This document shows positions 13,143-17,240 of a stretch of DNA of 64,000 nucleotides, one piece after another (within the stretch, counting starts at the first letter, position 1; each line of letters starts with the position of its first letter). Source of the stretch: an uncultured Chloroflexota bacterium (GTDB lineage Bacteria; Chloroflexota; Anaerolineae; Caldilineales; Caldilineaceae); assembly GCA_903858085.1 (NCBI GenBank), contig CAIOHJ010000103.1:21598-85597 (forward strand). The letters are read 5' to 3'. The translations under genes were made by a program, and so were the position numbers. A model generated the notes under the pieces. It was not told the DNA's origin. It searched no databases and saw only the letters and a program-made list of their open reading frames with translations.

Positions 13143-15470
13143 ATGCCCGACACAGAGACCCCGCTGCCCCACCCATCGTTTGTCCCGCGCCCGGCGCAGA
13201 CGAAAATCCTGGCCTATACCGGCGGCCCGATGGGGGTCAGCGCAGTGCCGGGCAGCGGCAAGACCTTCACGCTGAGCCTGCTGGCAGCCAAGCTGGTCGG
13301 AGAACTGGCCACCAGCCCCACGTTCGAGCCGCGCGAGATCCTGGTTGTCACCTTCACCAACAGCGCAGTGGCCAATTTCCGTGCCCGCATCGGCACCTTT
13401 CTGCGCCAGGAGCGCGGACTGCTGCCTGGGGTCGGCTACCGGGTGCGGACCCTGCACGCGCTTGCCCACGATATCGTGCGCGAACGGCCAGCGCTGGTCG
13501 GGCTGGGCGAAGGCTTCGAGATCGTCGACGGTGATACCAGCGCCGAGATCAAACGGGAAGCCGCGCGCGACTTCCTGGCCAGACACCCAGACGCCTTTGC
13601 CCCCTTTATCCGGCCAGAGTTGCTGCACAACCCGCGTCAGTTCGAGCGCCACTTTCAAGAAGATGCGCTCGAACTGGCCAACGTTGCGATCCGCGTCGCC
13701 AAAGAGCTGACGGCCAACCCCGCTTTGTTGCAGCAGAGCCTGGCCCGCCAGTCGGGCACATTCCCGCTGGTCGAATTTGCCCTCTCCGTCTACACGACCT
13801 ATACACGCAGCCTGAACACGCGCGGCGCGGTCGATTTTGACGACCTGATCGTGCTGGCGCTGCAGGCGCTGCGCGCCGACGAGGGCTATCTGGCCCGGCT
13901 GCAGGCACGCTGGCCCTATATTCTCGAGGACGAAGCCCAGGACTCCAGCCTGCTGCAGGAAAAGATGCTACGCCTGCTGACCGCCGCCCACGGCAACTGG
14001 GTGCGTGTCGGCGACCCCAATCAAGCCATCCACACGACCTTTACCAGCGCGGACGCACGGTTTTTGCAGCGGTTTTTGCGCGAGCACCCCCAACAGGCAC
14101 GGGATCTGCCCAACTCCGGCCGCAGCGCCCTGCCCATCCTCGAACTGGCCAATGCGCTGATCGACTGGTCGCGCACCGCACATCCGACCCTGGGGGTGGA
14201 GCAGGCGCTGGCCTACCCGCGCATCGAACCGACAGCGCCCGACGATCCCCAGCCGAACCCGGCAGCAGGCCAGCCGCCAGTCCACTTCCATGAAAAAGCG
14301 CTGACGGCCGATGCAGAGCGCGAGAGCGTGGTGACGTCGGTGCGCCGCTGGGTCGCCGACAACCCGGGCAGCACCGTAGCCGTGCTGGTCCCAGACAACC
14401 AGCGCGGGGACCAGCTCGTCGCAGCACTCAAAAACGGCGGGCTGCCGTTCGACGAATCTCTGCTGCGCAACAACCAGAGCAGCACGCGCGCCGCAGCCCA
14501 CCAACTGGCGATTGCGGCCGGCTATATTGCCAATCCCCACTCCGCCAACCTGCTGCAACAGCTGTGGGCCGAGGTCTGGTCCCCACGGCGGACAGCCGCC
14601 TCCTCTCCAGAGGAGGCCGCAGAAACCGGCGGCTCCCCCCGAGAAGACAAACGACCGGCGCAAATCTTTGCGCTGGCATTGGGCAAATTGAAGGAGCCAG
14701 AACGGTTTGTCTTCCCAGGACCCGACGATTTTCTGGACAGGCTGGCATGGCTGGCAGAGGCTGGGGAGCCATTTCGCCGGCAGATCGAGCAATTTCGACA
14801 GGATCTGCAGCGTTGGTGCCGGGCTCTGGTGCTGCCAGTCGACGAGCTGCTGCTGACGCTCGGCAACGACCTGTTCGTGGAACCCAGTGACCTGGCGCTC
14901 ACCCACCAGCTGGCCGTGCTGCTGGCCAAACTGGCGCGCGAAAACCCGGCGCTGCGTCTGGCCGATCTGGTCAAGGAGCTGCAGAACATCGCCCAGAACC
15001 GGCGCCGCCTGATCAGCTTCACCGAAGAGAGCCAGGGGTACAGCCCTCGCCCTGGGGTCGTCACCGTCGCCACCATGCATGGCGCCAAAGGGCTGGAGTG
15101 GGATCGGGTCTACCTGACCAGCGTCAACACCTTCAGCTTTCCCAGCGGCCTGGCCGACGAACCCTACCGCAGCGAACGCTGGTATCTGCGCGAGGGGAGC
15201 AACCTGGCCGCCGAGCTGGAAGAACAGCTCAGACAGCTGCACATGGGCACGCTGGACGACTATCTGCCAGGAAGGGCCAGCCAGCAGGCACGGCTGGCCC
15301 TGGCCGCCGAGCGGCTGCGGCTCTTCTATGTCGGAATCACACGCGCCCGCCGCGAGCTGATCGTCACCTACAACCTGGGCCGCCAGCCCGAGAAAGCGCT
15401 GCCGCCCGCCCGCCCCTTTCTGGCGCTGGCTGAATACTGGCAGCGCCGCTCCGCCCAGAACCCACGCTGA
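13143..15470 (+). CDS. UvrD/REP-family SF1A ATP-dependent helicase
   Basis: AVPGSGKT, DEAQD, VGDPNQAI, TMHGAKGLEW, RLFYVGITRAR. Confidence 0.92.
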   Translation: MPDTETPLPHPSFVPRPAQTKILAYTGGPMGVSAVPGSGKTFTLSLLAAKLVGELATSPTFEPREILVVTFTNSAVANFRARIGTFLRQERGLLPGVGYRVRTLHALAHDIVRERPALVGLGEGFEIVDGDTSAEIKREAARDFLARHPDAFAPFIRPELLHNPRQFERHFQEDALELANVAIRVAKELTANPALLQQSLARQSGTFPLVEFALSVYTTYTRSLNTRGAVDFDDLIVLALQALRADEGYLARLQARWPYILEDEAQDSSLLQEKMLRLLTAAHGNWVRVGDPNQAIHTTFTSADARFLQRFLREHPQQARDLPNSGRSALPILELANALIDWSRTAHPTLGVEQALAYPRIEPTAPDDPQPNPAAGQPPVHFHEKALTADAERESVVTSVRRWVADNPGSTVAVLVPDNQRGDQLVAALKNGGLPFDESLLRNNQSSTRAAAHQLAIAAGYIANPHSANLLQQLWAEVWSPRRTAASSPEEAAETGGSPREDKRPAQIFALALGKLKEPERFVFPGPDDFLDRLAWLAEAGEPFRRQIEQFRQDLQRWCRALVLPVDELLLTLGNDLFVEPSDLALTHQLAVLLAKLARENPALRLADLVKELQNIAQNRRRLISFTEESQGYSPRPGVVTVATMHGAKGLEWDRVYLTSVNTFSFPSGLADEPYRSERWYLREGSNLAAELEEQLRQLHMGTLDDYLPGRASQQARLALAAERLRLFYVGITRARRELIVTYNLGRQPEKALPPARPFLALAEYWQRRSAQNPR

Positions 15471-15570
15471 CCGCCCACGGCCAACAGCCTCCTCGGTTGA
15501 ATCCGCCCCCAGAAGCAGCTTTCGATTTGTGAAAATTTGGGGAAGGTCGCAGAAGTGTTGTATCCTGTAC

Positions 15571-15584
15571 AGAACAGACGTTCT
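15571..15584. promoter_or_regulatory. LexA (SOS) box, Gram-positive/Chloroflexi type
   Basis: AGAAC-AGAC-GTTCT perfect inverted repeat, 4 nt downstream of -10-like TATCCT (15561-15566). Confidence 0.75.
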
Positions 15585-15708
15585 ACCTGCGGCTGCAGAG
15601 ACCCTCTGGCCAGCGTTGATGGGGAGTCAACGCCGGAGCAACGCCGACCGCGGTAGAGTAGGGGCAGCAAATGGAAGAAGGATCGATTGACACAAGGCTG
15701 CTTTCACC

Positions 15709-16059
15709 ATGACACTGTTCCAACGACTTCGCTTCAACAAATTGCCGCAGACCCACACCACGCTGCCCGCTACACTGGCCAGCCCCACCGAGCCGCCAGG
15801 CCGGGACAGCTGCAAATATTATGTCACCGGCATCGACCGTATCCGGCTGCGCTGTGCCTTCCTGTTGGGTCCCTTCGACAGCGCAGAAGGGGCACTGGCC
15901 AACATCGAACATGCCCGGGCACTCACCGCCGCCAAGTTTCCTGCTGAGGCGCCGCAGCTGGTCTACGGCACAGCCGGGATTGAAAGGGGCATGGGGCTGC
16001 CGCTGGCGCTTTTCAGCCAGCGGGCCCGTCTGCGTTCGGGTCAGCCGACCAACGCCTGA
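15709..16059 (+). CDS. Hypothetical protein (116 aa), putatively SOS-regulated
   Basis: ORF downstream of the LexA box; globular core YYVTG..R..FLLGPF...ALA...AR; ATGA-coupled to a 13-codon uORF (15671-15712). Confidence 0.6.
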   Translation: MTLFQRLRFNKLPQTHTTLPATLASPTEPPGRDSCKYYVTGIDRIRLRCAFLLGPFDSAEGALANIEHARALTAAKFPAEAPQLVYGTAGIERGMGLPLALFSQRARLRSGQPTNA

Positions 16060-17240
16060 TAGACCTGGTTGCGGAAATCTGCCACCACAGGATAGGTGTC
16101 GGACGGCATATACTGCAGCATCAGCAGGCCGACGATCTGCTCTTGCGGGTCCACCCAGAAATTGGTATTGGCAGCCCCACCCCAGCCATAATTGCCCACG
16201 GACCCCAACGCAGCTGACCGTCCCAGGTCCATCAGCACGCTGACCCCCAGCCCAAAGCCGGAGGCTGGGTTCTCGAACGGATGGAGGCCAGGAGGCAAGC
16301 CATTGGTGGTCATCAGCTCGACTGTTTTGCGCCCGAGCAGACGAACGCCGTCCAATTCCCCCCGGTTCAAAAGCATCTGGGCAAAGCGCAGATAATCCCC
16401 AGCTGTGGAGACCAGCCCACTGCCGCCGAACGGGCAGGCCGCGGGCTGCAAATAATGGCCCGTCTGGGTCCCGTCGAGAAGTTTCAGCCCTCCCTGCTCC
16501 CCGGGTCCGTAGGTCGCCGCAAAGCGCCCGCACTTTTCGGCGGGCACATAAAAAGCAGTATCCACCATGCCCAACGGCTGGAAAATTCGTTCGTGCAGAA
16601 AGTGGTCGAACGGCTCGCCAGCCACCGCCTGCACGATGCCGCCCAGGACATCGGTAGCCATGCTGTAGCGGTATTTGCTGCCAGGGTGGTGGGCCAACGG
16701 CAGGGAGGCCAGGATCTCCATCAGCCCATCCAGCGACAGAGCGGCCGGGTTCTGCCGCCACGGTTCCCAGACACGCTGTTGGTAGAGTTGGTCGATGTAA
16801 ACAGCTGCGTCGAAGCCGTAGCTGAGACCTGCGGTGTGGGTCAGCAGGTCGTGCACCGTCGGTGGCCGGGCAGGTGCCACAGAACGCACGCCTGTATCGA
16901 GGCTGGTGTCCAGCACTTTGACATTTTGGAATGCAGGAAGGTAAGCGGCGACCGGGTCAGACAGACGCAGCCCTCCTTCCTCCATCAGCATGAGCACAGC
17001 CACGCTGGTGATGGGTTTGGTCATGGAGTAGATTCGAAAGATCGTATCCGCTTGCATGGGGGTGTTGCTCTCGCGCACTGCCATGCCGGCATGGTGCCGA
17101 TGGACGATCTGGCCGTTCCGGGCGACCAGGCTCACGACACCGGCAATCTTTTCTTCGGCCACATAGGCGTCCAGCACGGCATCGATCCGCGCCAGCCGCT
17201 GGCTGGCAAATCCTTGTGTTTCAGGCAGGATACTGTTCAT
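16041..17240 (-). CDS. Serine hydrolase, beta-lactamase class C-like family
   Basis: SxxK (SMTK), LLTHTAG, YRYS, WGGAA motifs. Confidence 0.92.
   Translation of the reverse strand: MNSILPETQGFASQRLARIDAVLDAYVAEEKIAGVVSLVARNGQIVHRHHAGMAVRESNTPMQADTIFRIYSMTKPITSVAVLMLMEEGGLRLSDPVAAYLPAFQNVKVLDTSLDTGVRSVAPARPPTVHDLLTHTAGLSYGFDAAVYIDQLYQQRVWEPWRQNPAALSLDGLMEILASLPLAHHPGSKYRYSMATDVLGGIVQAVAGEPFDHFLHERIFQPLGMVDTAFYVPAEKCGRFAATYGPGEQGGLKLLDGTQTGHYLQPAACPFGGSGLVSTAGDYLRFAQMLLNRGELDGVRLLGRKTVELMTTNGLPPGLHPFENPASGFGLGVSVLMDLGRSAALGSVGNYGWGGAANTNFWVDPQEQIVGLLMLQYMPSDTYPVVADFRNQVYQALVG

Follow-up and report, generated by a model that had tools for sequence, protein, structure and literature searches.

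A small gene of apparent phage ancestry behind a predicted LexA operator in one lineage of Caldilineaceae

A stretch of 64,000 nucleotides from the genome of an uncultured Chloroflexota bacterium, referred to here as the window, contains an AGAAC-N4-GTTCT palindrome. It is followed by a leader with a 13-codon upstream open reading frame (uORF) and by an open reading frame (ORF) of 116 codons. The locus raises the question of whether the palindrome is a LexA operator that places the small gene under the control of the SOS response and, if so, where the gene originated and how its translation begins. The comparison with related genomes and with phages suggests, with a probability of about 0.68, that the LexA (SOS) regulon of a Caldilineaceae bacterium includes the gene as a lineage-specific member, a phage-derived small gene having come under a host LexA operator. 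In the proposed mechanism, the GAAC-N4-GTTC operator covers the start site of a weak sigma-70-type promoter (TTGGGG-18-TATCCT), and DNA damage would cause the RecA-stimulated self-cleavage of LexA, which would free the promoter. The messenger RNA would have a leader of approximately 135 nucleotides, the 5' part of which lacks conserved structure. Ribosomes would most likely load at the Shine–Dalgarno sequence (SD) of the uORF and re-initiate at the AUGA junction on the main ORF, which has no SD. The product would be a soluble protein of 116 residues with a 55-residue alpha/beta core that belongs to a family from phages and integrative elements. The window is part of contig C103 of a 4.5-Mb metagenome-assembled genome (G000) with a G+C content of 62%. 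A previous sequence-only reading of the locus listed its elements, and a sequence check found each of them at the position given there.

LexA-type operator and promoter

The promoter and operator elements, with positions numbered from the first nucleotide of the window, are:
15537-15542, + strand: -35-like hexamer TTGGGG (TTGGAG in relatives), 18 nucleotides before the -10 hexamer, weak, with 3/6 matches
15561-15566, + strand: -10-like hexamer TATCCT (TATTCT in G004, G011 and L002)
15571-15584, strand ".": predicted LexA operator AGAAC-AGAC-GTTCT (AGAACagacGTTCT), positioned over the predicted transcription start

The core of the palindrome, GAAC-N4-GTTC, is a LexA motif in use in the Chloroflexota and is that of Dehalococcoides. 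It is also the established LexA motif of Gram-positive bacteria (PMC3323433). The occurrence of a single GAAC-N4-GTTC in the 64-kb window is at the chance level (0.76 expected), and the argument for an operator is derived from the whole genome. The genome contains 55 GAAC-N4-GTTC sites, 11 of which have the extended form AGAAC-N4-GTTCT, compared with approximately 2 predicted from the base composition. Nine of the 11 extended sites are intergenic, and most have A/T-rich spacers. The single lexA gene of the genome, on contig C18, has the promoter AGAACAAACGTGCG ... TTGACA-TCGCACAAATGTTCG-TGTTATGAT, in which two boxes surround a near-consensus TTGACA-17-TATGAT. The recA promoter (TTGACA-N17-TATATT) holds a LexA-type box inside it, and the promoter of uvrA has a TATACT hexamer with a box positioned 3-4 nucleotides downstream, which is the same geometry as that of the window locus. 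Further boxes are located in the promoters of genes encoding a DinG-like exonuclease-helicase, three FtsK/SpoIIIE motor ATPases, and one Amidase_2 protein. The identities of the box-carrying SOS-type genes were confirmed with Pfam.

An independent LexA matrix was constructed from the boxes of the SOS genes only, with the window site excluded. The window site scores 14.8 bits with this matrix, and 20.1 bits once the site itself is included. There are 46 matches at or above the score of the window site in the genome, compared with 9-10 in reversed or Markov-simulated sequence. Judged by the matrix score alone, the palindrome is only probably a LexA operator.

The odds are raised by the comparison of the locus in six sequences (the window, metagenome contigs L002-L006, and genomes G004 and G011; 85-97% protein identity), because both half-sites stay constant although the spacer and flanks differ. 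These sequences represent at least three species-level lineages. The orthologous boxes AGAACAAATGTTCT reach 28.3 bits in G011 and 26.5 bits in G004 and L002, which places them among the best sites of the whole matrix scan. In the lineage of L003-L006 the last T of the box is lost, and the score is 15.5 bits. The fraction of variable columns is 0.48 upstream of the -35 hexamer, 0.13 over the block from -35 to -10 (15537-15566), and 0.75 in the four nucleotides between the -10 hexamer and the box; the box itself is variable in its spacer and last base only. The box begins four nucleotides after the conserved TATCCT/TATTCT. The conserved -35/-10 block and the uvrA-like geometry would fit a placement of the palindrome over the likely start site, although the promoter is weak and does not pass the consensus scan. 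The assignment of the palindrome to the LexA type, which the sequence-only reading had made from the motif, is borne out by the boxes in front of lexA, recA, and uvrA and by the invariance of the half-sites in relatives. Taken together, the sequences indicate that the palindrome is very probably a LexA operator; the sister species have a strong version of it, and the version in the genome of the window is weakened but retains an intact core.

Several observations weigh against parts of the overall proposal. The score of the window site is below those of all the training sites (19.9-31.2 bits), because of its AGAC spacer and its flanks, and approximately one-fifth of the genome matches at the 14.8-bit level are expected by chance. 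The promoter has 7 of 12 consensus matches and remains below the threshold of the consensus promoter scan. The terminator scan detected no terminator between the helicase gene upstream and the 116-codon gene. No relative with the locus is less than 85% identical, which limits the depth of the conservation arguments. Dinucleotide shuffling of the leader produces an SD-bearing uORF that begins with ATG and ends on ATGA in 6% of cases. Furthermore, Pfam, NCBIfam, PADLOC, and the sequence profiles of the PDB contain no match to the protein or its family, so that its function is not constrained by databases.

Some of these points could indicate that the box is decaying or non-functional in the window genome, and that the gene is expressed mainly by read-through from the helicase gene, or constitutively from the weak promoter, without being inducible by DNA damage. 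The low score of the window site, the loss of the last T in the L003-L006 lineage, the weak promoter, and the missing terminator are consistent with this explanation, and read-through from the helicase gene may contribute to expression because no terminator separates the two genes. However, the half-sites are perfect in the window and invariant in all six sequences despite the varying spacer and flanks, and the remaining operators of the genome are defined by this same core, GAAC-N4-GTTC flanked by A and T. In addition, the sister genomes retain near-optimal sites at the same place. A decayed box is therefore considered unlikely, and a functional, weakened operator is the preferred interpretation.

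Protein family and origin of the gene

The gene, its core domain, and the neighbouring genes are:
15709-16059, + strand: gene for the 116-residue protein, with a conserved N-terminal peptide (residues 1-15), a variable disordered linker (16-36), a folded core, and a basic tail
15811-15984, + strand: core domain, residues 35-92, beta-beta-alpha-alpha-beta, common to the phage family phrog_20105
13143-15470, + strand: gene for a UvrD-like helicase of 775 residues, the upstream neighbour, assigned with Pfam
16041-17240, - strand: gene of the beta-lactamase family (serine hydrolase), convergent, its 3' end overlapping the 3' end of the ORF by 19 nucleotides

The 116-codon ORF is a real gene by the evidence of its sequence, because it has a coding pattern of substitutions, in-frame insertions and deletions, and distant homologs with a common core. 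Its G+C content by codon position is 0.64/0.55/0.74, which matches the coding pattern of the genome. The substitutions relative to L002 are distributed 12/6/17 over codon positions 1/2/3, and the insertions and deletions among relatives, one of 6 nucleotides and a 12-nucleotide unit, preserve the reading frame. The 12-nucleotide unit CTGTCTGCTACA, which encodes LSAT, is tandemly arranged in the disordered N-terminal linker, and its copy number ranges from one to three among close relatives (window 15754-15815; L014, from G004, 1760-1810; also L002).

An exhaustive HMMER search of 1.8 billion representatives identified three distant relatives with E-values from 4e-10 to 5e-4, and a profile search extended the family to 26 clusters of proteins of 71-186 residues, all of them unnamed. 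The homologs share a 55-residue core with the motif YYVT..D....aFLLGPF.t..eALa.V.rgr.la....p.a.wyaYGTag; V39, L53, G54, P55, A62, and G87 are invariant in the family alignment. All five members tested match phrog_20105, which is annotated "unknown function" (best E-value 1.4e-16), and the window protein matches it with an E-value of 2.9e-6. Searches with tblastn locate the family in the Sinorhizobium phages phiM12, phiM7, phiM19, and phiN3, in Bordetella phage PHB04, and in the Rhizobium RHph phages. The named members are SmphiM12_023 of the Sinorhizobium phages and ATI15667.1 of PHB04. Thus the protein, which had been described as an unknown small protein, was previously uncharacterized but is not an orphan, since it belongs to the phage family phrog_20105.

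On long contigs, the homologs belong to arrays of small genes that share one orientation. In phiM12, the nearby genes include those of DNA polymerase, UvsX, and the gp41 primase-helicase; a Prim-Pol together with a tape-measure protein, an integrase together with FtsK, ThiF/E2, PAPS reductase, and a P22-like small protein are among the neighbours of other homologs. By their gene content, these surroundings are early and accessory regions of phages or integrative elements.

The AlphaFold2 model of the window protein has a core with the topology beta-beta-alpha-alpha-beta and a predicted local distance difference test score above 90 (residues ~40-100), whereas the N-terminal 34 residues and the tail are disordered. 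A second model, that of a 76-residue homolog, agrees with it. The predicted soluble alpha/beta core is in line with the earlier expectation that the product is not a hydrophobic peptide. The Foldseek comparison with the BFVD database matched A0A7S5V147 with a template-modelling score of 0.91, normalized to the target, and a root-mean-square deviation of 1.2, and the PHB04 protein with a probability of 1.00. The structure-based search for a function suggested in the sequence-only reading produced fold matches, but these are uncharacterized viral proteins only, and neither of the two models has a match in the PDB by Foldseek (best E-values 0.6 and 1.9). The likeness of the LLGPF..eA segment to DUF6316 and SPOR is sub-threshold (E-values 0.009-0.03), and it has not been used as evidence. 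No conserved signature of nucleic-acid binding is seen in the family, in which the core has net charges between -3 and +7. It is conceivable, and openly speculative, that the protein is a small binding protein that modulates a component of host DNA replication, repair, or the cell cycle, because many small phage early proteins act in this manner.

The Caldilineaceae protein shares the core of approximately 55 residues, the motif, and the predicted fold with the phage members of phrog_20105. Unlike them, it is encoded on a chromosome and has a 36-residue N-terminal extension and a basic tail. It also departs from the family at typical positions, with TH.EAL changed to SAEGAL and RGR to HAR. Its N-terminal peptide MTLFQRLRFNKLPQT is absent from all phage homologs.

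The gene is present in three of the 16 genomes of the genus: that of the window, G004, and G011. The helicases of these three carriers are 94-95% identical to each other and 67-71% identical to those of the remaining genomes of the genus. Downstream of the orthologous helicase, nine other species have unrelated genes and no box, and within the genus the box-leader DNA was found in the three carriers only. The gene is missing from all 45 other genera that were sampled in this family and class, and among 401 genomes sampled across the phylum it is present in one besides the window's own. That copy (G282) has no box and a non-phage context, and is uninformative. A search for LexA boxes at homologs was negative both for this copy and for the phage homologs, which have neither a GAAC-type nor a CTGT-type box nearby; the Caldilineaceae copy is the only one seen behind a LexA box. 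The family membership indicates that the gene is phage-derived, and the distribution that the unit of box, leader, and gene is a recent acquisition by one species cluster.

Alternatively, the gene could be a LexA-gated antirepressor or another switch gene of a resident prophage, of the Tum or GfoA type, since LexA-repressed small phage genes of this kind exist. However, the gene neighbourhood contains no phage genes, and tblastn with the phage neighbours revealed no remnants of them on either side of the window gene. Moreover, the family occurs in virulent T4-like phages of the phiM12 group, beside replication genes, where an antirepressor has no role. A prophage switch is the least probable of the explanations considered, and a captured gene under the host operator is favoured.

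The gene does directly follow the UvrD-like helicase gene, as had been noted, but this arrangement is limited to one species cluster. The matrix scan revealed no LexA box before the helicase gene. No functional link with the helicase can be inferred, because the position after it is confined to one species cluster.

Leader RNA and translation initiation

The elements between the operator and the main ORF are:
15585-15659, + strand: 5' part of the leader with the proposed 76-nucleotide four-way fold, 0.27 variable columns, no covariation
15582-15592 and 15648-15657: arms of helix P1
15596-15608: hairpin 1, CAGAG/CTCTG
15613-15633, + strand: hairpin GCGTTGA/TCAACGC, the sole invariant hairpin of the leader
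15660-15664, + strand: SD of the uORF, AGGGG in the window and AGGAG in G004, G011, and L002, six nucleotides before the ATG
15671-15712, + strand: 13-codon uORF encoding the peptide MEEGSIDTRLLSP, the TGA of which overlaps the ATG of the main ORF at 15709 (ATGA 15709-15712)

The sequence-only reading had emphasized the multibranch fold of the leader and called the layout TisB/DinQ-like; tisB/istR-1 and dinQ/agrB of Escherichia coli are LexA-controlled type I toxins with inhibitory 5' untranslated regions. According to such an explanation, LexA and a conserved inhibitory four-way-junction leader, possibly together with an antisense small RNA, would restrain a harmful product. The LexA box is present, the leader is long compared with those of the other SOS genes of the genome, and the four-way fold is the minimum-free-energy structure of 15580-15659 in the window sequence, with a z-score of -1.8 (10 of 200 shuffles are as good). 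However, this advantage over shuffles is marginal and is limited to the 80-nucleotide piece, since neither the complete leader, with a z-score of -0.06, nor its other sub-parts are more stable than shuffles, and relatives diverged by 5-10% (G004 and L003) fold differently. The 5' arm of P1 is changed to TCCACC or TCTTGT in relatives and the 3' arm to CCGA, without compensation, and hairpin 1 also loses pairs that are not compensated. Pair counting on the proposed structure gives the same covariation as in shuffles used as controls (272-309 of 500), and RNAalifold assigns a positive covariation term (+1.5). The variability of the 5' part of the leader, 0.27, is that of the disordered linker of the protein, as expected for unconstrained sequence, and the hairpin at 15613-15633 never varies and is uninformative. 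The fold thus exists as a prediction for the window sequence, but it is not conserved in relatives, and a conserved structured inhibitory leader has been rejected because of the uncompensated changes, the lack of covariation, and the neutral-like variability.

The other components of a toxin-like layout are not apparent either. Rfam contains nothing relevant for the whole window at the gathering threshold or for 15400-16200 at a permissive threshold. The promoter and terminator scan for an antisense RNA detected no minus-strand promoter and one terminator-like site at the chance level. The product is a predicted soluble alpha/beta domain and not a membrane peptide, and the comparative data disfavour the two-layer layout of the TisB/DinQ type and make it very improbable.

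The leader also contains a direct repeat CAACGCCG, present twice, 11 nucleotides apart (15628-15646), each copy of which can pair with GCGTTG (15613-15618). The two pairings form mutually exclusive hairpins, and the relatives keep the second of them via a G-U pair; no function is evident.

The uORF is arranged as the sequence-only reading described it, with its stop codon overlapping the start codon of the main ORF, for which no clear SD exists. No purine-rich tract is present within 15 nucleotides of that start codon. There is one substitution in the uORF among the six sequences, and the encoded peptide is hydrophilic. In several of the phage homologs, the start codon overlaps the stop codon of the gene before it (cacgATGA, acaaGTGA, ctaATGa), and because of this the hand-over of ribosomes at a stop codon is, judged from these sequences, the usual initiation mode of the family. 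The 113 nucleotides from the SD of the uORF to codon 15 of the main ORF form the best conserved part of the locus, with 5 variable columns (0.04) compared with 0.11 in the folded core of the protein. The stretch 15641-15753, the most conserved of the locus, is less structured than shuffled sequence, and the coding of the uORF and the N-terminal peptide may not fully explain its conservation. The z-scores of the start region (+0.6 and 0.0) show it to be unstructured, as is expected of an initiation region.

It is possible, though the balance of evidence is on the other side, that the uORF is present by accident, for instance as a relic of the capture, and that the main ORF is initiated directly without an SD and without a second layer of control. 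The frequency of such a uORF among shuffled leaders increases from the 6% given above to 19% if GTG and TTG starts are allowed, an unstructured start region favours SD-independent initiation, and the relatives are too close for a test of the reading frame. By contrast, three relatives have the canonical SD AGGAG at an ideal spacing, the main ORF lacks a purine-rich tract, the segment from the SD through the uORF to the junction is the best conserved part of the locus, and coupling by stop/start overlap is common in the phage homologs. These features make translational coupling of the uORF and the main ORF likely. In the known cases of stop/start (AUGA) coupling, as here, a short ORF with an SD ends on the start codon of an ORF without one; the upstream ORF of the window locus differs in having only 13 codons and no recognizable sensing motif, and the coupling itself is deduced from the sequence. 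A reading in which a -1 frameshift carries ribosomes from the uORF into the main frame was considered and rejected, as no slippery heptamer follows the in-frame stop at 15688-15690. The possibility that the uORF or the leader is a remnant of a phage gene located upstream was discarded because tblastn of the phage neighbours provided no match.

A more elaborate proposal is that a domesticated phage early protein acts as a DNA-damage effector that is gated twice, by LexA and by an unstructured 113-nucleotide initiation cassette serving as a translational sensor. The cassette would comprise the SD, the 13-codon leader ORF, the AUGA junction, and the first 15 codons, and the protein would bind a host replication, repair, or division factor, possibly the UvrD-like helicase. 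This proposal is quite improbable.

Relation to known systems and other LexA boxes of the genome

The predicted operator resembles the Cheo box of Bacillus subtilis and Mycobacterium tuberculosis in having the same palindromic core, here with a predicted placement over the -10/+1 region of a sigma-70-type promoter (PMC3323433). Unlike the Cheo box, the local consensus favours A/T flanks, AGAAC-AT-rich spacer-GTTCT rather than CGAAC...GTTCG, and the operator is predicted in front of a phage-derived gene of one species cluster only. The operator of Dehalococcoides belongs to the same GAAC-N4-GTTC class.

The locus resembles tisB/istR-1 and dinQ/agrB in that it has a LexA box and a long 5' leader, its main ORF lacks a usable SD, and its product is small. 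It differs from them in encoding a soluble alpha/beta protein of 116 residues and not a hydrophobic peptide of approximately 30 residues, in the lack of a conserved leader fold, and in having no evident antisense RNA; a leader ORF with its own SD explains the entry of ribosomes more simply. The tum gene of coliphage 186 and the GfoA/GfhA antirepressors of the Gifsy phages are LexA-repressed small phage genes, and SulA, YneA, and DinI are small effectors induced in the SOS response. The window gene is similar to all of them in that a small protein is predicted to be produced only after the cleavage of LexA, and similar to the tum and Gifsy group in its phage ancestry. Unlike these proteins, it has no prophage or repressor partner, no likeness to them in sequence or fold, and no membrane segment. 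By analogy, its nearest functional counterparts may be the lineage-specific small SOS genes and the LexA-gated phage genes such as tum and the Gifsy antirepressors.

The locus may represent an example of the SOS regulon growing at its edges, in which a captured phage gene gained a host LexA operator. Since no LexA site was found at any phage copy, the operator appears to have been acquired after the capture by one Chloroflexota lineage. The predicted control by DNA damage would provide the first physiological handle on phrog_20105, a family without a function, a Pfam entry, or a structural relative. The comparative data also correct the more exciting interpretation of the locus as a structure-gated module similar to type I toxins.

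LexA boxes are present in other parts of the genome as well. A repeat of 145-157 nucleotides, with five copies that are 88-94% identical (C177:101-257, C231:2052-2192, C277:392-548, C279:215-364, and C221:13734-13877), contains the strong LexA box ATCAGAACAAA(C/A)GTTCTGGG. One copy precedes the gene of the DinG-like exonuclease-helicase, and a small ORF begins on the other strand of the repeat (M.IAGGKRLGTH.LVH.SDLNQ.LKAFPQHGDAG). Near the ends of eight contigs, a second box-like repeat, GCCCGCACAAACGTTCTGGG, is present. The LexA-box repeats may be a mobile or duplicated SOS promoter cassette. At C355:1428-1470, a perfect AGAACATTCGTTCT occupies the spacer of a consensus promoter, TTGACA-N17-TATAAT, that is not followed by an obvious ORF; this promoter could serve a small RNA or a very small protein under SOS control. 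Three genes or promoters of motor-only FtsK/SpoIIIE ATPases are positioned behind one or two LexA boxes at C76:191-1375, C161:5918-6990, and C257:4086-4130. The RecA protein of the genome (C124:10095-11354, minus strand) contains tandem repeats, with four copies of VEVGK near its N-terminus and six copies of AKES near its C-terminus.

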